Shown piece by piece: positions 6,334 through 64,000 of a stretch of 64,000 nucleotides of DNA. The first letter of the stretch is position 1; every line of letters starts with the position of its first letter. Under the pieces are notes generated by a model, which was given only the letters and a program-made list of their open reading frames with translations, was not told where the DNA came from and ran no database searches. This DNA is from an uncultured Alphaproteobacteria bacterium (GTDB lineage Bacteria > Pseudomonadota > Alphaproteobacteria > CAAHEQ01 > UBA3637): contig CALXZG010000006.1 in assembly GCA_944393195.1 (NCBI GenBank), forward strand, positions 1,226 through 65,225, written 5' to 3'. Both the position numbers and the translations under genes were made by a program.

Positions 6334-6379
6334 TTTTTTCGATTTAGTCCCTTTTATTTTCCATTTCAGAAGGTTAAAA

Positions 6380-6409
6380 AGCCCCCCGATTAAGTCGGGG
6401 GTGACGGGG
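6380..6409. repeat. REP-like palindromic element, type A (AGACCCCCGAT-N-GTCGGGGGTGACGG family)
   Basis: The sequence aagccccccgattaagtcgggggtgacgggg has a CCCCCGA/TCGGGGG stem. Near-identical copies lie at 46589-46617 and 48227-48256. Confidence 0.7.
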
Positions 6410-6420
6410 TATTTATTCAA

Positions 6421-6447
6421 AGATTCCCGCCCGTGCGGAAGCGATGG
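6421..6447. repeat. REP-like palindromic element, type B, degenerate (AAAGATCCYCG-N-CGRGGATGACGG family)
   Basis: The sequence agattcccgcccgtgcggaagcgatgg resembles 48324-48352 (aaagatccccgcctgcgcggggaggacgg), but its stem is imperfect. Confidence 0.4.
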
Positions 6448-6649
6448 AAAGTATCAAAAGGATGGTGAAAAGGGAAGGATGGCAGGGGAATAAATAAACA
6501 CGAAAATGATAGGAAGCGATTAGTGGCGTGCGGGTAGAAATGAAAATAACCCTTTACAGTATCGATATTTTCCTTGATTCATCTTTCTTTTTATGATAAA
6601 CGAATGCTATCATCATATCAGGATTTTTTTGTAATCAGAGGAGTGTTAA

Positions 6650-7806
6650 GTGTTGGGTATGCATCAAGAAACCGGTCGGAGTATGGTTGAAACGCTGGGC
6701 GTGTTGGCGGTTATGGGGTTATTGTCCATCGTTGGTGTTATGGCCTATCGATATGCGATTGACAGAATGAATGCAAGCGGGATTATTGATGAAGTGCGGA
6801 AACGGGCTGTGGTCGCCAGTCAGCAGCGGATTTTAGGTCAGTCAATTGATCTGTCGGAATATGGGGATAACGCAATACAGGGGCATCCGGTGACACCGGC
6901 GGATAATTATGAAGGGGATTCTTCTTTCTTTACATTAACGATATCGGGGGTCCCAAACGGGTGTGTGATCATGTCATTCGCGAAAAGATGCCTTTTGCCG
7001 TTGCGGAAAAAGTCGGCGGTGTACAGGTTGTGGATGGCATGACCTGCATCGACGGGGAAAACACGATTATTTTTGCCTTTGCGAATACATTGGACAGTAA
7101 CGCGGTACCGGCGGTGTTGGATCCGGCGTGTTGGGGTGTGACGTGTCCGGCTGGAAGCAATTGTTCGAACGGGTTTTGCCTGTGTTCATCGGGGCAGGAA
7201 GTTTGCGGAGAAATATGTTGTCCGGACGGACAGATGTGTTCAAGTCGCTTTGCCGGTTGTGTGGAGGCAACGGGGTGTTTAAGCAATGCGGATTGCAATG
7301 AGGGTGAGTATTGTTTGATCAGTGCGACCAAAGATATGTCAGAAACAACTTGCTATAAGGATTACAATGGCGTTTGCATGACTTTGACGGATGGAACGGA
7401 AACCGAAATCGAAGGTGTGGGAACGGTGTTCAGGAGCAATGTTGAAGTCGGTAGTTGGTGGGCAGCTAAAAATTGGTGCCAGGCGCATGGAAAACGTCTG
7501 ATGAGGATTAGCAATAACCGCTTGGGGTGTTATCGGGAAAGTGACGGAACGACACCTTTCGGTGAAACGACGACCGGTTATTGTTGTGCCGAAAACCAAG
7601 CCGGTTGTAGTGATGACAAAACGAAACAAAGTATTCTGATGCAAGAATTAAGGAATAAATTGAGTGACGGAACCGTTTGGTTGGAAACGGATTTCAGTTC
7701 TTGTGTTGCGTCCTATATGTTGTTATCCATTGGTGGGATCGGTAATTCATCCCGTGGCTATAACGATTATGCTCTGTGTGAGGAGACGACCGCTTCCGGT
7801 TTGTGA
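6650..7806 (+). pseudogene. Modular pilin-like / Cys-rich / lectin-like family member P1, split into two frames (6650-7042 and 6958-7806); either a pseudogene or a -1 frameshift gene
   Basis: Frame 1 encodes the leader plus GRSMVETLGVLAVMGLLSIVG and the pilin-head N-half. Frame 2 continues (R)VCDHVIREK...IIFAFANTLD, then the Cys-rich region and the WWAAKNWCQAHGKRL...YALCEE tip. The two parts are colinear with the intact paralog at 29792-31063. Relative to that paralog, one nucleotide is missing at 6952-6958 (gtcccaaacggg versus gtcccgcaacggg). Confidence 0.8.
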
Positions 7807-7999: not shown

Positions 8000-8090
8000 T
8001 GGCGGAAAGGGAGGGATTCGAACCCTCGGTACAAACAAGTTGTACAACAGATTTCGAGTCTGCCGCATTCGACCACTCTGCCACCTTTCC
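8000..8090 (-). tRNA. tRNA-Ser (anticodon CGA), class II with long variable arm, encoded CCA
   Basis: The reverse complement folds by hand: GGAAAGG-TG-...-GCAGA CTCGAAA TCTGT-long variable arm-GAGGG TTCGAAT CCCTC-CCTTTCC-G-CCA. Confidence 0.9.
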
Positions 8091-8409
8091 ATCGTGTGTG
8101 GGGTTGTGTCCGATCCGACAGACTCTCAATCTGTTGTCCGTTTGCGTTCCGCAAACACAGATTAGTCCTTCGGGCTTACGCCCTTCGTTCATCTCCGCCA
8201 AGGCGTCGATAACGAGTCTGCCGCTTATCATTCACTCTGCCACCTTTCCATCGTGTGTGGGGTTGTGTCCGATCCGACAGACTCTCAATCTGTTGTTCGT
8301 TTGCGTGCCGCAAACACAGATTAGTCCTTCGGGCTTACGCCCTTCGTTCATCTCCGCCAAGGCGTCGATAACAAGTCTGCCGCTTATCATTCACTCTGCC
8401 ACATTTTCC
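8055..8409. repeat. Tandem direct repeat, period ~159 bp, ~2.2 copies; each copy carries a degenerate 5' half of tRNA-Ser
   Basis: Unit starts fall at 8055, 8213 and 8372. The copies are near-identical. Copies 2 and 3 contain GGAAAGGTGGCAGAGTGAATGATAAGCGGCAGACTCG, compared with the tRNA 5' half GGAAAGGTGGCAGAGTGGTCGAATGCGGCAGACTCG. Confidence 0.9.
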
Positions 8410-25258: not shown

Positions 25259-26782
25259 ATGGTTGATAAAATAACGGAAGAAGATATTTGGACACGTTTG
25301 GCCGGTGTGAAGCGCGGGCAAGATGCGATTTATCGTTCGGTTCGTTTTTTATGGGATGCGATGAGATTCTTTCATTTGTCGGATGAATGTTGTGCCGAGG
25401 TTTTAAAAAGTGATTTGCGTATGGGGTTTCTGGTGGCACGCATTGCCCAACACGATTTACGGTTTTCACCGGAATTGGTACGGGATTGGCAGGAAGCCTT
25501 TGACATAACACGGGAAGATGTCCGGCACATCTTTGTTAAAAATGTGCATGGATTGGCTTTGCCGGTATCGATGGTCGCGGATCGTGTTCAAACCGTTTCG
25601 GATTATTTTCAGGCGTGCGGGTATGGGCGTTCTGCTTTTATCAAAGCTTTTCTGGCGTATCCGACGTTATTCGGGCAGCCGGCCGAAACGATTATCGGGC
25701 ATATAGAGTCCGTATCACGGCATTTTGCGCCGGACGGATTGACGCAAAAGATGTATGTCGGCATGGCGTTGAATAACCCGTCATTATTTTTTCTGGACGG
25801 ACAAAGAACGATTGATCGGGTGGAAGCGATTTTATCTTGGTTTCATAAAGGCGGGATCAAACGTTCGGTCGGTATGCAGCGAATCATGCATAACCCATCT
25901 TTATTTTATGTGAAAACAGAAACGGTTATCGGGCATGTGGAACAAGCGACATCTGTGTTGCAGGCGTATGGTGTGTCGTCAGAAGTGTATCGGAAGGCTG
26001 TCGGGAATCAGCCGGCTTTATTCTTTACCGATGCGGAAATGATGCGGAAACGGATTGAAACGGTTGTAAATCATTTTCGGGAAGAGGGTTTGACGGAAAA
26101 GGGCTATGCGGCGATTGCGGTTGCTTTACCCCGGCTATTGTTGGGAGATCCGAATCGGATGATTCATCATATTGAATCGGTACAGCGTCATTTTGCGCAG
26201 GACGGGATGACTATGCGTGATTATGTGCGGGCGGCGATCAAGCAAAAGACGTTATTCAGTCAGAATCCGCAAACAATTATTCGGCATATTGAAACGGTTT
26301 TATCCGTTGTTCAAGCGGCCGGAGGGAGTCGGCAGGATTATGTTGCGGCCGCCTTAAAACAACCGACTTTATTCAGTTTGGATACGGAAACGGTTTTGCG
26401 GCATGCGCGTTTCGTGATTCAAACAGGATTGCGGCTTGGTATTTGGAATGAAGAAAAGGCCACATGGGCATGGTTGTGTCGACGGCCGGTTGTGTTGTGT
26501 TTATCGGATGAGAATTTGCGACGACGGGAGCTATTGGGCAAAATGCAAAAAAACGCCGGACAGGCTGTTTTTAAGAATATTTTCAGTATTAGTCGTTTCG
26601 ATGTGTTACAACAGATGTGTTTGTTAAACGGTATTGTGTTGGGGGAATTATATGCGGATATTGATGCCCGGCAATTAAAACGGGCTGCGGCTTCCAAAGT
26701 GATTCGTCATCAACGGGATGAGGTTGCTTTCCGATATGTGCGGCGGCAGTATACCGCGAATCAGAAAGATCCGCGGGTATGA
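25259..26782 (+). CDS. Tandem 39-aa helical-repeat protein (mTERF-like consensus)
   Basis: 507 aa. At least six or seven consecutive units share the pattern P-x-L-F-x(5-6)-T-(I/V)-I-x-H-(I/V)-E-x-V-x(3)-F-x(3)-G-(L/M)-(T/S)-x(3)-Y. The PTLF, PSLF, PSLF, PALF, PRLL, KTLF and PTLF anchors are spaced 39 aa apart. Confidence 0.7.
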   Translation: MVDKITEEDIWTRLAGVKRGQDAIYRSVRFLWDAMRFFHLSDECCAEVLKSDLRMGFLVARIAQHDLRFSPELVRDWQEAFDITREDVRHIFVKNVHGLALPVSMVADRVQTVSDYFQACGYGRSAFIKAFLAYPTLFGQPAETIIGHIESVSRHFAPDGLTQKMYVGMALNNPSLFFLDGQRTIDRVEAILSWFHKGGIKRSVGMQRIMHNPSLFYVKTETVIGHVEQATSVLQAYGVSSEVYRKAVGNQPALFFTDAEMMRKRIETVVNHFREEGLTEKGYAAIAVALPRLLLGDPNRMIHHIESVQRHFAQDGMTMRDYVRAAIKQKTLFSQNPQTIIRHIETVLSVVQAAGGSRQDYVAAALKQPTLFSLDTETVLRHARFVIQTGLRLGIWNEEKATWAWLCRRPVVLCLSDENLRRRELLGKMQKNAGQAVFKNIFSISRFDVLQQMCLLNGIVLGELYADIDARQLKRAAASKVIRHQRDEVAFRYVRRQYTANQKDPRV

Positions 26783-29283: not shown

Positions 29284-29623
29284 GATGTCTTCCTTATTCC
29301 GAAATTAAACCGATGTCATCAGTAAAACAGGTTTTGCCGGGAAAAGCAACCGTTAAATCCGAAAAAAATAAAAATAAAAAACTTGACCCAATATCTTGTG
29401 GTTTTGATACTAAATATAGTGCATACTCTTTTACGCGTTTTAAGAAATGCTATAATAAACAAAAGGTTATCATTTTATGCCGACGAATGGGTGACGACGG
29501 CTTTTTAAAAAAACGGTTAAAACGATTTTTCGGGGGTGTGTAAAAGAGATAAAAATTTCAATCGGTTTTTACTTTTTTCCGATTCGGAAAGAGCCCTTTG
29601 TTGTGATGAAAAAGAATTCGAAG

Positions 29624-29655
29624 TGTAACAATTTAATGTACATTAAATTGTTACA
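29624..29655. promoter_or_regulatory. Perfect 32-bp palindrome upstream of paralog P2 (putative operator)
   Basis: TGTAACAATTTAATGT|ACATTAAATTGTTACA is exactly self-complementary. A homologous degenerate copy lies at 46318-46349 upstream of P3. Confidence 0.6.
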
Positions 29656-29741
29656 GTTTTTATAACATAATCGGGTGGGTGACGCAAGTCCTTTTTTATT
29701 AAGAATTAATCGGTTATCGATTTGTCATTTTTTGTCCAAAG

Positions 29742-29773
29742 TGTAACACGAAAGGGTACATTTTTGTGTTACA
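29742..29773. promoter_or_regulatory. Inverted repeat just 5' of the P2 RBS (operator or 5'-UTR hairpin)
   Basis: TGTAACACGAAA-gggtaca-TTTTGTGTTACA has 12-nt arms with one mismatch. It ends 7 nt before the AAGGAG RBS. The positional homolog lies at 46461-46492. Confidence 0.55.
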
Positions 29774-29791
29774 GTTCGAAAGGAGTAATAA

Positions 29792-31063
29792 ATGACTGAA
29801 ATCAAAATGGAAAATGGTCGGAGTATGGTTGAAATGTTGGGCGTTCTGGCCGTGATGGGCGTGTTATCGATTGGCGGTGTGGCCGGGTATCGGTATGCGA
29901 TTGATAAAATGAATGCGAATGACATTATCAACGAAGTGCGGAAACGGGCCGTGACGGCAAGTCAACAACGCATCTTGGGTCATGATATTAATTTATCGGA
30001 ATATGGGGACAACGGGCGGATAAAGGGAATTCACGCCGTTACAGCGACAAACGATTATGCGGGGGATAAAGGGTTCTTTGCGTTGACGGTATCGGCAGTC
30101 CCGCAACGGGTGTGTGATGACATCCTGAAACAGGATTGGGCGATGCCGGTGGAAACGGCCGTCGGAGGTGTTGTGGTTGATGATGATGATACAACATGCG
30201 CCGAGGGGGAGAATGAAATGTTGTTCGCATTTGCGAATACATTGGATAATTCGTTGGTCCCTGGGGAAGGGAATGGAGAAGAGAACGGGGATGATGAAGT
30301 AGACGACGGAGATGATCCGTGGGCGCAGGAGTGTGGTACGAATGAGTATCATGACTTTAATACTGGGGAATGTGTGGTGGATAAAGATTGTGATGAGGGA
30401 GAGTTTTTATATGGAAGTCAATGTTTAACGTGTCCGGATGCGGATAATCCGGTTGCCGGATATGGTGACCGATGGAGTGGCACATGTACCAAATGTCCGG
30501 GTGCGAAAGAGGGGAGTGCCTCCCGCGGATACTATTGTGTTTATTGCCCGAACGGAGAAGCGTGCGCCGATCAATGTTGTGGCGAGGGAGAGTGGTGTCA
30601 ATATAATACATCAACGTACAGTTATGAATGTACCTCAACCAAAACGGATGGTGAATGTATGACGAATGACGATTGTGGGGATAATCAATATTGTCAATCG
30701 TATACTGGTTGCCAGATGGTGAATGGAACGTGCAAAACAATTAGTAGCACGACGGTGACGATTAACGAGAAAACATACACGGCATCGACAGATCGTATGT
30801 CGTATCATGCGGCAGAGAACTTCTGCGATGCGCTTGGGAAGCGTTTAGCACCGGTGACAGACGGGTGTACGGCGGAAGAATTGGCAGCGGTTAAAGCAAA
30901 CAGTTATTCTGGCAGTTGTTCGGGATGGGTACATACGATAGGTAAATATTATTGGACACGCACAAAATTAAGCGGGTGTGGCTCGTATTATGTAGAGAGT
31001 AGCCGTTCAGGCAAGGTCGGGTCTAACCCTTGGATCAACGTCAACGACGCCCTTTGTCGCTAA
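29792..31063 (+). CDS. Modular pilin-like protein P2: prepilin-type leader and pilin head, acidic linker, Cys-rich stalk, C-type-lectin/DUF1566-like tip
   Basis: 423 aa. MTEIKMENG|RSMVEMLGVLAVMGVLSIGG carries Gly-1 and Glu+5. RVC...TTC are 30 aa apart. About 20 Cys fall in residues 180-310. The C-terminus reads MSYHAAENFCDALGKRLAPV...YYWTRT...ALCR*. Confidence 0.8.
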   Translation: MTEIKMENGRSMVEMLGVLAVMGVLSIGGVAGYRYAIDKMNANDIINEVRKRAVTASQQRILGHDINLSEYGDNGRIKGIHAVTATNDYAGDKGFFALTVSAVPQRVCDDILKQDWAMPVETAVGGVVVDDDDTTCAEGENEMLFAFANTLDNSLVPGEGNGEENGDDEVDDGDDPWAQECGTNEYHDFNTGECVVDKDCDEGEFLYGSQCLTCPDADNPVAGYGDRWSGTCTKCPGAKEGSASRGYYCVYCPNGEACADQCCGEGEWCQYNTSTYSYECTSTKTDGECMTNDDCGDNQYCQSYTGCQMVNGTCKTISSTTVTINEKTYTASTDRMSYHAAENFCDALGKRLAPVTDGCTAEELAAVKANSYSGSCSGWVHTIGKYYWTRTKLSGCGSYYVESSRSGKVGSNPWINVNDALCR

Positions 31064-31197
31064 GGTTCCCCCTTTTGTTCCATGGAATGTCTCCCTTTAT
31101 TCCGTGGAACAACGTTAGTATATACACCAATATGGTGTATTGTCAATATCAAAACAATTTTGTTTTTCGTTTTTTGAGGGAATATGTAAAACCGTTG

Positions 31198-31226
31198 AAA
31201 GATCCTCGCTTTCGCAAGGATGACAG
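31198..31226. repeat. REP-like palindromic element, type B
   Basis: aaagatcctcgctttcgcaaggatgacag has a stem TCCTCGC/GCAAGGA with one mismatch. It belongs to the same family as 46642-46670. Confidence 0.6.
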
Positions 31227-31262
31227 AAAAAAAACAAAGGAATGCGGCGGGGAAATAAGAAA

Positions 31263-46273: not shown

Positions 46274-46317
46274 GTCGTTTTAGGAAGTGATTATTTTTCA
46301 ATTGGTTATTTGACGAG

Positions 46318-46349
46318 TGTAACAATTTAATGTTCATTAAAATGTTATA
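46318..46349. promoter_or_regulatory. Degenerate homolog of the 32-bp palindrome (putative operator) upstream of P3
   Basis: tgtaacaatttaatgttcattaaaatgttata aligns with 29624-29655. Both are followed by the identical 13-mer ttttataacataa. Confidence 0.55.
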
Positions 46350-46460
46350 GATTTTTATAACATAAAACTATAATCGAATACAAGCTCTTTTTTTAATATT
46401 TTGCATTTTTTTGAAATGGTTATGTAAGGCCGTCGAAAGAGGGAATTTGGGTATAAAAAG

Positions 46461-46492
46461 TATAACAAAAAAAGGAACATTTTTTTGTTATA
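46461..46492. promoter_or_regulatory. Inverted repeat just 5' of the P3 RBS
   Basis: TATAACAAAAAAA-ggaaca-TTTTTTTGTTATA has perfect 13-nt arms. It ends 7 nt before AAGGAG and is the positional homolog of 29742-29773. Confidence 0.55.
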
Positions 46493-46510
46493 GTTGAAAA
46501 GGAGCGATAA

Positions 46511-47956
46511 ATGACTGAAACAAAAAATAAAAACGGAAAAAGTGGTGTGTATCAAAATAGTGATTTAGGGGCATCGGGTGTGTGTCATAAGACCCCCGAT
46601 CAGGTCGGGGATGACGGTTTAACAGTAGGGAGTGCGTGTTCAAAGATCCCCGCTTTCGCAGGGATGACGGAAAGTAGCCGCAACGAACGGGGTCGGAGTA
46701 TGGTTGAGATGTTGGGCGTTCTGGCGGTCATGGGCGTATTATCGATTGGCGGTGTGGCCGGGTATCGGTATGCGATCGATAAAATGAATGCGAATGACAT
46801 TATCAACGAAGTGCGGAAACGGGCCGTGACGGCGAGCCAACAACGTATCTTGGGACAAAATATCAGCTTGACAGAATACGGGGATAATGGGCGGATTAAA
46901 GGAATTCATGCCGTCACAGCGACGAACAATTATGCGGGGGATAAAGGATTTTTTGCATTGACGGTGTCAAACGTGCCGCAACGGGTGTGCGATGAGATTT
47001 TGAAACAGGATTGGGCAATGCCGGTTGAAATGGCGATCGGTGGTGTTGTGGTCGATGATGATACAGCCTGCGCCGCCGGAAATAATGAAATGTTGTTTGC
47101 ATTTGCAAATACGTTGGATAACTCGTTGGTCCCAGGGGCAGGGAATGGGGATGATAACGAACCCGAACTTGAACCGTGCGCCGAGGGCGAATATCGGTTA
47201 TCGACAGGGGAGTGTGTGATGGATTCTCATCCGGAGTGTGCAGATGGGGAATTTTATAATGGATACACGAGTTCCTGTACGGTTTGTCCAACGGAGGGAA
47301 GTCCTGTTGAAAATAGTTCAGTTATAGAGGATACGTGTGAAAAATGTACGGGGGCGCAAATTGGTGGGCATAATCCGAATTATTGTGTCTATTGCCCATC
47401 CGGGATTGTGTGTGGTGACCAATGTTGTGGGGAAGGACAAATGTGTCAACGTAGTAGTTCTTATCCATATACATATACCTGTGTCTCTGCATTAGGGACA
47501 AATGAATGTTTGACGAATGATGATTGTGGGGATAATCAATATTGTAAAAATGATTATGGTTGTGAAGTAACGATTGGGACATGTACAGATATTAGTAGCA
47601 CGACGGTGACAATTAACGAAAAAACATACACAGCTTCGACGGAGGGTATATCGTATCATGCGGCGGAGAACTTCTGTGACGCGCTAGGGAAGACATTAGC
47701 ACCGGTAACGGACGGGTGTACGGCCGAAGAATTGGCAGCGGTTAAAGCAAACAGTTATTGGGGCAATTGTTCGGGATGGGCGCACACGACGGATAATGGG
47801 TATTGGACAGCAACAAAGATAAGTGGATGTGCTTCATATGAGATAAGCAGTAGCAGTTCAGGCTGGGTCGGGGCTAACTATTGGATCTACGACTACAACC
47901 TCCTCGCCCTTTGTCGCTCAGGTTCCCGCTTTTTACTATCTCCTTTAGCCATTTAA
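46511..47956 (+). CDS. Modular pilin-like protein P3 (same architecture as P2) with a 52-aa repeat-derived insertion in the leader and a 12-codon C-terminal extension
   Basis: 481 aa. The RBS and ATGACTGAAA start context are conserved with P2, as are RSMVEMLGVLAVMGVLSIGG and the head, stalk and tip. At the position of the P2 stop codon TAA, P3 reads TCA. An alternative in-frame start lies at 46664 (MTESSRNERG|RSMVE). Confidence 0.8.
   Translation: MTETKNKNGKSGVYQNSDLGASGVCHKTPDQVGDDGLTVGSACSKIPAFAGMTESSRNERGRSMVEMLGVLAVMGVLSIGGVAGYRYAIDKMNANDIINEVRKRAVTASQQRILGQNISLTEYGDNGRIKGIHAVTATNNYAGDKGFFALTVSNVPQRVCDEILKQDWAMPVEMAIGGVVVDDDTACAAGNNEMLFAFANTLDNSLVPGAGNGDDNEPELEPCAEGEYRLSTGECVMDSHPECADGEFYNGYTSSCTVCPTEGSPVENSSVIEDTCEKCTGAQIGGHNPNYCVYCPSGIVCGDQCCGEGQMCQRSSSYPYTYTCVSALGTNECLTNDDCGDNQYCKNDYGCEVTIGTCTDISSTTVTINEKTYTASTEGISYHAAENFCDALGKTLAPVTDGCTAEELAAVKANSYWGNCSGWAHTTDNGYWTATKISGCASYEISSSSSGWVGANYWIYDYNLLALCRSGSRFLLSPLAI
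46589..46617. repeat. REP-like element type A inside the P3 5' coding region
   Basis: aagacccccgatcaggtcggggatgacgg is translated in frame as KTPDQVGDDG. Confidence 0.7.
46642..46670. repeat. REP-like element type B inside the P3 5' coding region
   Basis: aaagatccccgctttcgcagggatgacgg is translated in frame as KIPAFAGMT. Confidence 0.7.
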
Positions 47957-48102: not shown

Positions 48103-48226
48103 CGTAAATCAAAAGTTGCCGGTGGCAAGTTTTGATGCGCAAAGCAATGAAACACCGCGCGCCAAGGCAGCGGAAGTCGCCGCCGGCAAGCGGATGTTGG
48201 AATTGAAAAGGGGGTAAGATGGTCAT

Positions 48227-48256
48227 GAGACCCCCGATCAGGTCGGGGGTGACGGG
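48227..48256. repeat. REP-like element type A
   Basis: gagacccccgatcaggtcgggggtgacggg is near-identical to 46589-46617. Confidence 0.7.
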
Positions 48257-48323
48257 ATTATAATGGAGCGGGAATGACAGAAAATAATAAGGGATGACGT
48301 AGGAGAGGCAGAGCGGGGTGCTT

Positions 48324-48352
48324 AAAGATCCCCGCCTGCGCGGGGAGGACGG
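48324..48352. repeat. REP-like element type B
   Basis: aaagatccccgcctgcgcggggaggacgg is preceded by gagcggggtgctt. Confidence 0.65.
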
Positions 48353-48410
48353 AAAAAAGCAAGGATGACGTAGAATTATAATCGATGACGTATTTTTAGG
48401 CAGAGAAGTG

Positions 48411-60761: not shown

Positions 60762-61313
60762 ATGATCAGATTAATTAAACCGCATCCCGATTATTTAGAA
60801 AGTGTTTTAAAGGGAATAGAGGAATATGAATCCGATACAACGGCGTTTCACATGATACGTCCCGTTCACGATATGATAGAGGCCAAGCACAATCATTTTA
60901 AAGATTATTTTAACCGGTTGAATAATGAAGAAAATGGTATCAATTTGCAACCCAATCATGTCAAACAAACGACTTTTTGGTTGTTGGATGATGATCAATA
61001 TGTCGGTACGATTGCTTTACGCCACCATTTAACACCGATGTTACGCCAGAGCGGTGGCCATATTGCTTATCAAGTTATTCCTTCAAAACGCCGTAAAGGG
61101 TATATGACAATCGGCCTGAAATTATGCCTTGATGAGGCAGCAAAACTGGGGTTAGATACCGTTTTGGTGACATGTCAGGAAGGAAATATCGCCTCTTATA
61201 AAACAATGCATCGTGTCATGGTTCAAATGGGAGGCTATGAGGATACCCCCTCTGATTTTGACGGGCATCAGGTCAGGCGTGTGTGGATATCATGCCCAAA
61301 GGGTGATAATTAA
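60762..61313 (+). CDS. GNAT-family acetyltransferase
   Basis: 183 aa. An acetyl-CoA-binding-like segment (IPSKRRKGYMTIGLKLCLDEA) sits within a GNAT-sized fold. Confidence 0.65.
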   Translation: MIRLIKPHPDYLESVLKGIEEYESDTTAFHMIRPVHDMIEAKHNHFKDYFNRLNNEENGINLQPNHVKQTTFWLLDDDQYVGTIALRHHLTPMLRQSGGHIAYQVIPSKRRKGYMTIGLKLCLDEAAKLGLDTVLVTCQEGNIASYKTMHRVMVQMGGYEDTPSDFDGHQVRRVWISCPKGDN

Positions 61314-61560
61314 ATTGATGTTGGAATTGGAAAGTCCGGACGGGCGGGTATATAAAAACCCCGCACTGACGGGGTGTATGGTGGGCCCGGTAGAGCAAGC
61401 GTAAATCAAAACAACCGTTGAATCGGTTGTTTTGTCGTGTAGCCAATGAAACACAATGAGCCGAACGGGAGTGAGGACGAATTGATGTTGGAATTGTGAA
61501 GTCCGGACGGGCTGGTATGTAAAAACCCCGCACTGACGGGGTGTATGGTGGGCCCGGTAG
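61313..61560. repeat. Direct duplication: two 81-bp copies (61313-61393 and 61480-61560) 167 bp apart, containing the last 15 nt of tRNA-Met plus its terminator
   Basis: The copies differ at ~4 positions. Both contain the CCCCG-cactga-CGGGG hairpin and tggtgggcccggtag. Only the second copy continues into a full tRNA. Confidence 0.9.
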
Positions 61561-61622
61561 GACTTGAACCCACGACCTATCCGTTATGAGCGGACAGCTC
61601 TAACCAACTGAGCTACAGGCCC
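61546..61622 (-). tRNA. tRNA with CAU anticodon (elongator Met or lysidine-modified Ile2; not an initiator)
   Basis: The reverse complement is GGGCCTG-TA-GCTC-AGTTGGTTA-GAGC-T-GTCCG-CTCATAA-CGGAT-AGGTC-GTGGG-TTCAAGT-CCTAC-CGGGCCC-A-CCA. Position 1:72 is paired and the anticodon stem lacks the GGG/CCC pattern, so it is not fMet. Confidence 0.88.
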
Positions 61623-63878: not shown

Positions 63879-63910
63879 AAAAAGCGGGGTGAAGAATCAT
63901 CTTCACCCCG
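63879..63910 (-). terminator. Intrinsic terminator / hairpin 3' of paralog P4
   Basis: On the minus strand CGGGGTGAAGA-tgat-TCTTCACCCCG (11-bp stem) is followed by CTTTTT. It lies 33 nt after the P4 stop. Confidence 0.75.
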
Positions 63911-63943
63911 TTTCGCTTGTCCTATCACACAAAAACCGAAACC

Positions 63944-64000
63944 TTAGCGACAAAGGGCGAGGCTGCCGTTGCCGTGGGTCCAAAAGTCAGACCCGACCGC
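63944..64000 (-). CDS. C-terminal 18 codons plus stop of a fourth modular pilin-like/lectin-like paralog (P4); the rest lies outside the window
   Basis: The reverse complement reads GCG GTC GGG TCT GAC TTT TGG ACC CAC GGC AAC GGC AGC CTC GCC CTT TGT CGC TAA, giving AVGSDFWTHGNGSLALCR*. It is colinear with the P2 and P3 ends, and the last 15 nt plus the following GGTT are identical to P2. Confidence 0.75.
   Translation of the reverse strand, partial: AVGSDFWTHGNGSLALCR

Follow-up and report, generated by a model that had tools for sequence, protein, structure and literature searches.

Diversity-generating retroelements (DGRs) are known from Mtd of a Bordetella phage and from TvpA and its paralogues in Treponema denticola, where the variable region (VR) lies at the extreme C-terminus of a C-type-lectin (CLec)-fold domain, variation is limited to positions 1 and 2 of AAY-type codons and a conserved block follows the VR. 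Treponema carries several such target paralogues scattered over one genome, and homing in Bordetella phage BPP-1 is enhanced by a hairpin that lies just 3′ of the VR. Pilus proteins can also be varied by other means: the PilV shufflon of the IncI-plasmid type IVb thin pili varies the C-terminus of a type IVb minor pilin, and the binding specificity changes with it. In gut Bacteroides, DGRs generate variation in pilus tip adhesins of the type V pilus that have C-terminal CLec VRs (10.1101/2024.11.15.621889). In a DGR survey, one of the rare domains that hold a VR is a pilin domain of GspG type (PMC11661182), putative pilin structures have been tied to DUF1566 targets (cited in PMC6642488), and modular type IV pilins have been described, e.g., PilB of Streptococcus sanguinis (PMC8179133). 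Here we analyze a stretch of 64,000 nucleotides (64 kb, hereafter the window) of an uncultured alphaproteobacterium (contig CALXZG010000006.1), in which three genes for pilin-lectin proteins, P2, P3, and P4, end in a short tract that differs from copy to copy. DGR-type adenine mutagenesis very probably produced this tract, on a CLec scaffold that is carried by a type IV pilin module. That a DGR is acting, or was recently, with its reverse transcriptase (RT) and template repeat (TR) located elsewhere, we give a probability of roughly 0.6.

As in Mtd and TvpA, the tract sits at the very end of a CLec-fold domain, its changes fall on positions 1 and 2 of AAY-type codons and a conserved block comes after it; as in Treponema, several paralogous targets are scattered in one genome. 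In a codon-aware alignment of full-length P2 and P3 (coordinates in Table 1) and of P4, completed from the public scaffold L001, the segment from AGT AGC (C/A)GT TCA GGC to GCC CTT TGT CGC contains 13 variable nucleotides in 21 gap-free codons, eight at codon position 1, five at position 2 and none at position 3. An earlier reading made from the letters alone (the sequence-only reading) had counted 14 variable columns, a number that we reproduce when the two indel codons are included; the three codon strings it quoted are exact, and its claim that third positions do not vary holds (0/21). The divergence upstream is ordinary, as it had stated: among the 96 gap-free codons in the last 100 alignment columns preceding the tract, 21 vary at position 1, 21 at position 2 and 48 at position 3 (Fisher p = 3.8e-6 for third-position variability, tract vs. 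upstream; p = 1.5e-4 for the split among positions). Positions 1 and 2 of the tract are near saturation while its third positions are unchanged; ordinary divergence and selection would have let synonymous C/T changes build up there.

The 5′ boundary of this substitution pattern is sharp. Since third positions are fixed within the block and vary in 48 of the 96 codons before it, the block begins at position 30998 in P2, 15 nt earlier than the start at 31013 that had been assigned to the variable tract, which is itself confirmed. At its other end the homogenized block includes the stop codon and extends ∼16 nt past it (GGTTCCCGCTTTTT), where identity had been seen for ∼10–15 nt. All copies share a conserved block, GCCCTTTGTCGCTAAGGTTCCCGCTTTTT, a candidate for the initiation of mutagenic homing (IMH) element. 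The pattern GTCGGGNNTNACNNTTGGANCNAC has three matches in the window, all at P2, P3, and P4, with 0.19 expected, and on this expectation and the third-position Fisher test a chance origin of the tract is rejected. In P3 the stop codon itself has become TCA. Because the positional orthologue P0008 of a closely related strain (shared DNA ∼99% identical) keeps TAA, this change, too, sits at an adenine.

VR DNA of three further copies, P0013, P0008, and P0001, was obtained from related assemblies and read in the same frame as P2, P3, and P4. The six sequences have 26 variable columns, distributed as 13, 11, and 2 over codon positions 1, 2, and 3, and adenine is retained in 39 of the 146 cells (27%) at these columns. 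Additional paralogues and strains had been named as the place where third-position changes would speak for ordinary divergence; they have instead strengthened the pattern. P0001 and P2, whose tracts are of equal length, differ by 12 nucleotides, every one at codon position 1 or 2.

The same bias extends to the proteins of the family, for which a homologue search at the protein level gave 413 homologues. In the variable codons of 43 distinct ALCR-type tails, the residues outside the coding capacity of NNY (K, E, Q, M, and W) amount to 7 of 358 (2%), vs. 611 of 4300 (14%) upstream (p = 9e-15), and Tyr, Gly, Ser, and Asn predominate. The codon preceding GTC encodes only A, S, V, W, K, P, E, T, and R, all of which are reachable from AAG via adenine changes, and the residue set at each codon fits adenine substitution in AAC, AAT or AAG. 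Frozen third positions and the exclusion of Lys, Glu, Gln, and Met are explained by templated change at adenines only, not by ordinary mutation and selection.

In a related lineage whose proteins end in ALCEERG, the genes P0145 and P0149 are almost the same, their 3′ flanks agree throughout 120 nt, and the differences between them are almost confined to positions 1 and 2 of the last ∼55 codons. Counted by codon positions 1, 2, and 3, the two genes have 7, 12, and 1 changes in the last 30 codons and 3, 6, and 3 in the preceding 30. Across the nine members of their 90% cluster (P0095 lineage), variation is concentrated in ∼57 C-terminal residues. As sequences, these alleles present the classic picture of a DGR target and indicate that the wider family behaves as one. 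A homologue of 736 aa, P0034, has two tandem lectin modules, each with a hypervariable-looking stretch followed by YALCE, and would carry both an internal and a terminal variable region.

In each paralogue a prepilin signal and an N-terminal helix appear to be followed by a small pilin head, then by an acidic linker and a Cys-rich spacer, with the CLec-fold domain at the C-terminus. The N-terminus of P2 reads NG/RSMVEMLGVLAVMGVLSIGGVAGY (also written NG/RSMVEMLGVLAVMGVLS), with Gly at −1 and Glu at +5; the residue at +1, Arg, is unusual for a pilin signal and the Pfam N_methyl match is only weak (E = 0.13). In the family alignment (A2) M12, V13, and E14 are invariant and G9 is nearly so. The full-length AlphaFold2 (AF2) model consists of a 48-residue N-terminal helix (residues 14–61), a small beta head (strands 81–148), a disordered acidic linker, a Cys-rich beta region and a C-type-lectin-like domain (CTLD). 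Its best Foldseek matches are the type IVb pilins TcpA, CofA, and PilS (probability 1.0, E = 1.5e-3 to 1.3e-2). Sequence and model together contain what characterizes type IV pilins, i.e., Gly at −1, Glu at +5, a long N-terminal helix and a small beta-sheet head.

At the other end of the protein, a profile of the C-terminal 140 residues matched only CTLDs in the PDB (best PLA2R at 8e-7), the AF2 model of the C-terminal part of P2 has a pLDDT of 94, and Foldseek returned CTLDs and the C-terminal domain of Bdellovibrio Bd2740, a fibre tip (probability 0.99, TM 0.4–0.5). These three approaches agree on the C-type lectin fold that had been proposed, and the variable tract spans the last two beta-strands of the CTLD model, at the C-terminus of the domain. 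The narrower assignment to a DUF1566- or FGE-type domain was not sustained, as it falls below Pfam gathering thresholds: P2, P3, and P1 are without a match, and 34 family members yielded one weak hit to Lcl_C (DUF1566; E = 0.21) and none to FGE. Neither Pfam nor NCBIfam gave anything above threshold for the pilin-lectin proteins. Unlike in Mtd and TvpA, the lectin domain thus lies outside Pfam DUF1566/FGE and its N-terminal partner is a type IV pilin module. From the pilin N-terminus, the pilin matches in Foldseek and the CTLD fold we therefore conclude that these proteins are modular type IVb-like pilins with a lectin tip, and we infer that they function in or on a type IV pilus as ligand-binding subunits.

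No genes for a prepilin peptidase or for pilus assembly were found within the window. A related contig from human faeces (L023) encodes a complete type IVb operon, comprising bundlin/PilS-type pilins, a T2SSF platform protein, a T2SSE ATPase, PilO, a secretin and TcpQ, and its bundlin/PilS-type pilin shares the P2-type N-terminus; the operon is of the PilO/PilS/TcpQ type. Like S. sanguinis PilB and IncI-plasmid PilV, the proteins encoded in the window fuse a pilin module to an adhesive module. However, the shufflon acts by site-specific inversion among a few fixed segments, whereas variation here is a randomization at the nucleotide level; no Rci-type recombinase or sfx repeats turned up, in analyses that were aimed at neither.

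With the DGR adhesins of Bacteroides, the pilin-lectin genes have in common a pilus-borne product, a diversified C-terminal CLec VR and a gut setting, their relatives including human-faecal contigs. They differ in that the Bacteroides adhesins belong to a type V pilus (lipoprotein, strand exchange) and ours start as type IVb-like prepilins, and in that the Bacteroides target lies in a DGR cassette, often on an integrative and conjugative element, whereas here the targets lie amid housekeeping genes with no cassette nearby. The joining of a prepilin or pseudopilin N-terminus to a DGR-type VR has its parallel in the GspG-type domain and the DUF1566-linked structures (PMC11661182; PMC6642488), which stand, in the passages that mention them, as catalogue entries without family, architecture or copy number. 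To judge from its sequences, the pilin-lectin family would belong to the class of DGR targets, in a pilus context that has rarely been noted. Confirmation of a DGR would make this a well-defined example of type IV pilus subunits diversified by such an element, with remote targets that are unusually many and dispersed, in a bacterium that is uncultured and probably gut-associated; the finding on the type V pilus of gut Bacteroides would thereby be extended to another pilus system. The family would also offer a compact lectin scaffold, absent from Pfam, that tolerates massive variation.

In the mechanism we propose, a cassette made up of the final ∼22–26 lectin-domain codons, the stop codon and the next ∼16 nt would be overwritten in every paralogue, the source being one common template rich in AAC and reading approximately AGT AGC AGT TCA GGC AAG GTC GGG ACT AAC AAT TGG (AAC)n CTC GCC CTT TGT CGC TAA (GGTTCCCGC). 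The adenines of this template alone would be randomized, i.e., by mutagenic retrohoming of a DGR. We predict the template to be a non-coding sequence of ∼75–90 nt with the form AGTAGCAGTTCAGGCAAGGTC...TGG(AAC)n...GCCCTTTGTCGCTAA and with adenines at the 26 variable columns. The RT and the template that would have made the tract must then reside in another part of the genome or on some mobile element. Homing appears infrequent in the lineage of the window, and a second layer of variation comes from whole-gene allelic replacement and from recombination between paralogues.

Several results weigh against this interpretation. First, neither an RT nor Avd nor a template repeat was found in the window or in the other sequence that we fetched (352 kb in total with overlaps, window included), which comes from loci of this and related species and covers a small fraction of the genome. 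In this the locus is unlike Mtd and TvpA, and the sequence-only reading, which had reported the same lack for the 64 kb, is confirmed over the larger set. Scanning all six frames of the window and of most fetched loci for the motifs YxDD and IGNxxSQ brought up nothing RT-like, and the precomputed Pfam labels of ∼150 neighbouring genes include no RVT_1. For the template, an adenine-mismatch scan with eight VRs, an AAY-run scan and IMH-pattern scans of the window and the fetched loci gave nothing; within the window the tract occurs in no second copy, and no AAY-rich stretch there has the right flanks. Scans for VR/TR patterns in viral contigs produced 0 matches, and a pattern scan of JGI metagenome contigs produced no template, its three matches being chance ones in an unrelated membrane protein. 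The lectin-domain profile had no match in a viral scan, and exact P2 peptide words hit one irrelevant locus in the genome collection. Looking for the template through ORFs that it might encode gave three word-sharing candidates with one query, none of which scored, and no candidate with another, negatives that carry no information. A profile made from the related lineage's VR and searched exhaustively returned full-length family members only, and tblastn of P2 found nothing in plasmids and only the pilin N-terminus in phages. In a related strain a prophage encoding T7-type capsid and scaffold proteins, a head-tail connector and an S24 repressor-like peptidase (L014 1–6000, scaffold_780) is located 4 kb upstream of P0013; it may carry a phage-borne DGR beyond the part that was read.

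A second difficulty is length. The number of codons from TGG to GCC is 5, 5, 6, 7, 7, and 9 in the six DNA copies and ranges from 5 to 10 across the family, and because canonical homing keeps length, one fixed template cannot give this range. The single template proposed for all copies cannot have been of one fixed length; the shortness of P2, already noted as unusual for homing, is part of a variation found throughout the family. If made by the retroelement, the length heterogeneity of (AAC)n would bear on the fidelity of DGR reverse transcriptases over repetitive templates. The whole tract, at ∼66–78 nt, exceeds the ∼42 nt first estimated and is still short for a VR, which again sets it apart from Mtd and TvpA.

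Third, there are a few changes of other than adenine type (CTT/CTG, one NNT for NNC, GTC/ATC, and Trp to Ser or Pro in two homologues). Several 90% clusters have identical tracts despite differences elsewhere, the P0013 tract is identical on three contigs, and P0008 and P0126 have part of their variable residues in common, an overlap that looks like descent with point changes and not like fresh re-randomization. Close relatives mostly have the same tract and would appear to give no sign that diversification is ongoing in the lineage of the window, in which retrohoming, if still possible, looks rare.

Recombination has shaped the family as well. At the P3 locus (46350–47930 vs. L016) the whole gene is 75–85% identical between two strains and its flanks are 97–100% identical, which looks like the replacement of an entire pilin-lectin allele, beyond the tip. 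The alleles P0054 and P0142, identical in all else, have swapped C-terminal blocks of ∼70 aa, and there is exchange of C-terminal blocks and of 3′ flank modules among alleles and paralogues. Besides the tip changes, variation therefore comes from recombination and allele replacement, which possibly dominate at present. It is tempting to speculate that the at least four pilin-lectin copies within 64 kb, and probably many more per genome, constitute a repertoire acted on in trans. Set in housekeeping surroundings and with shared promoter palindromes, they would be rewritten by one remote DGR whose (AAC)n template is copied at variable length, and retrohoming and paralogue recombination together would supply the pilus with a large stock of interchangeable binding tips; we advance this as a tentative possibility.

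The same misfits could mean that the tracts are fossil VRs, written by an ancestral DGR of which the RT and the template have since been lost, so that change now comes only from recombination and allele replacement between paralogues. The RT and template missing from all sequence reached, the identical tracts within 90% clusters and across three contigs, the strain difference at the P3 locus, the C-terminal swaps between P0054 and P0142, the length differences and the few non-adenine changes are all what such a loss would leave behind. Yet the third positions of the tract are unchanged though adjacent codons of the paralogues have diverged at half of theirs, and the last overwriting must therefore be later than the divergence of the paralogues. 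Moreover, the related lineage has allelic differences confined to the VR (P0145/P0149), and the sequence reached is a small part of the genome; we regard such a loss as possible but less likely. A multi-target DGR substrate, existing or recent, as the sequence-only reading had it, is partly supported, by the VR signature, the six VRs, the 43 tails, the CLec fold and P0145/P0149.

The hairpins downstream of the tract had been taken for the hairpin or cruciform of a DGR. They are indeed present in all three copies (folding z = −5.2, −3.2, and −4.1 for P2, P3, and P4), at 14, 43, and 37 nt from the position of the stop codon, and a stable structure within 45 nt of the tract in each copy invites the analogy with phage BPP-1. 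But they have no common sequence, their stems and loops (Table 1) and their distances from the tract differ, a run of U follows the one of P4 as in an intrinsic terminator, and the 3′ flank modules that accompany them are not the same. The idea of a conserved DGR element is rejected for their lack of homology and their differing geometry, and a role as a cruciform promoting homing is improbable; they look like ordinary terminators belonging to different 3′ flank modules. Least probable of all, and in our opinion very unlikely, is an origin without any retroelement, in which gene conversion homogenizes the 3′ ends of the paralogues and strong diversifying selection on ligand-contact residues drives ordinary point mutations at positions 1 and 2: it could draw on the mosaic recombination among paralogues (common 3′ flank modules, swapped C-terminal blocks, shared promoter palindromes) and on the overlap of P0008 and P0126, but selection permits synonymous C-to-T changes, of which none is seen at 21 third positions, would not almost wholly bar Lys, Glu, Gln, and Met from 358 residues, and leaves unexplained that the residues at each codon are the adenine-substitution set of AAC, AAT, and AAG and that the stop codon of P3 also changed at an adenine.

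Table 1. Features of the pilin-lectin genes in the window (positions within the 64,000-nt stretch).
Feature	Positions	Strand	Remarks
P2 gene, 423-aa modular pilin-lectin	29792–31063	+	Open reading frame (ORF); 5′ ∼500 nt common to another paralogue
P2 prepilin-type signal (Gly9 / Arg-Ser-Met-Val-Glu14) and long hydrophobic N-terminal helix (residues 14–61)	29816–29974	+	AF2 model, Foldseek
P2 C-type-lectin-fold module, ∼residues 310–423	30719–31060	+	PDB profile, AF2, Foldseek
P2 variable region	30998–31063	+	AGT AGC CGT TCA GGC AAG GTC GGG TCT AAC CCT TGG ATC AAC GVC-type NNC codons, then GCC CTT TGT CGC TAA
P2 conserved 3′ block GGTTCCCCCTTTTGT	31064–31078	+	After stop codon; candidate end of template homology or IMH
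P2 hairpin, 15-bp stem, 8-nt loop	31075–31112	+	Probably terminator; not conserved in other copies
P3 ORF, 481 aa	46511–47956	+	Likely true start ATG at 46664; leader holds in-frame REP-like palindromic elements
P3 variable region	47849–47920	+	Stop codon TAA to TCA, +12 codons
P3 conserved 3′ block GGTTCCCGCTTTTTAC	47921–47936	+	Alignment of copies
P3 GC-rich hairpin, 11-bp stem, 8-nt loop	47961–47990	+	Common to P0008 and P0001 in shared 3′ flank module
P4 3′ end	63944–64000	−	Last 57 nt of 72-nt variable region including stop codon
P4 conserved 3′ block GGTTTCGGTTTTTGTG	63928–63943	−	Alignment of copies
P4 hairpin, 10-bp stem, 4-nt loop, then CUUUUUC	63886–63909	−	Intrinsic-terminator type
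P1, distant paralogue, ...YALCEE tail type	6650–7806	+	1-nt frameshift near 6960–7040; hypervariable-looking tail stretch ∼7741–7785

The carrier genes differ in their state of preservation. P4, on the minus strand, extends beyond the end of the window and encodes 474 aa when completed from L001. In the distant paralogue P1 a 1-nt deletion relative to the other paralogues (window 6950–7045; CCA AAC GGG TGT in place of CCA CAA CGG GTG) divides the gene into two ORFs, and since the public scaffold has the identical frameshifted sequence, P1 is probably a pseudogene. Several database homologues of the family are likewise truncated at the N-terminus.

The neighbours of the paralogues are housekeeping genes (gyrB, recF, dnaN, lon, dnaA, tuf, metG, pyrD, phoH, ybeY, ftsY, fmt, def, lepA, and groEL). 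In other strains the gene after the neighbour of P2 (EF-Tu) differs, and contigs with the gene upstream of P3 break off at the paralogue. A further paralogue, P0001, directly follows a type IV secretion operon on its downstream side and has the orientation of that operon (L022 1–9790; VirB8, VirB9/CagX, a 2279-aa VirB10/TrbI-like protein, and VirB11).

Palindromic elements resembling repetitive extragenic palindromic (REP) sequences lie near the paralogues at 6374–6455, 31192–31234, 46584–46678, and 48222–48360 and translate as ...PDQVGDD... and ...IPAFAGMT.... Where they are inserted between the pilin signal and an ATG upstream of it, with the frame kept (P3, 46511–46663; P4, in L001), they make the annotated long leaders doubtful. 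The promoters of the paralogues have two palindromic boxes in common, TGTAACA-N18-TGTTACA, one distal and one just before the ribosome-binding site. These boxes are found at 29622–29661, 29740–29779, 46316–46355, and 46459–46498, and also upstream of P4, P0013, and P0008 (L001, L014, and L016), and they suggest that a common regulator likely controls the paralogues.

In one public assembly (ERZ28613992, scaffold_165), read directly, position 64000 of the window is joined to position 1 through 2690 bp that comprise the rest of P4 and the 3′ part of gyrB; in a second (ERZ16268270, scaffold_780) the layout implies that the two ends are neighbours. Both scaffolds place a 430-aa paralogue, P0028, together with anmK beside dnaA, where the window has dnaA-P2-tuf, and scaffold_165 begins at window position 29990, inside the ∼500-nt 5′ repeat (29792–30294) common to P2 and P0028. 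With these joins the window would close as a 66.7-kb circle, so that either its source or the scaffolds must be mis-joined or recombined in the P2/P0028 repeat; the window or the public scaffold may thus be mis-joined at P2.

Two repeats elsewhere in the window abut tRNA genes: a 159-nt unit in tandem (98% identity, 8074–8391) adjoins the 5′ end of a tRNA-Ser (8000–8090), and an 81-nt repeat (95% identity, copies 167 nt apart, 61313–61560) adjoins a tRNA-Met (61546–61622). Both may be remnants of integration sites. Finally, a 507-aa protein (25259–26782) encoded beside cold-shock and HSP20 genes has precomputed matches to mTERF (PF02536) in the public scaffolds, an unusual domain in a bacterium.

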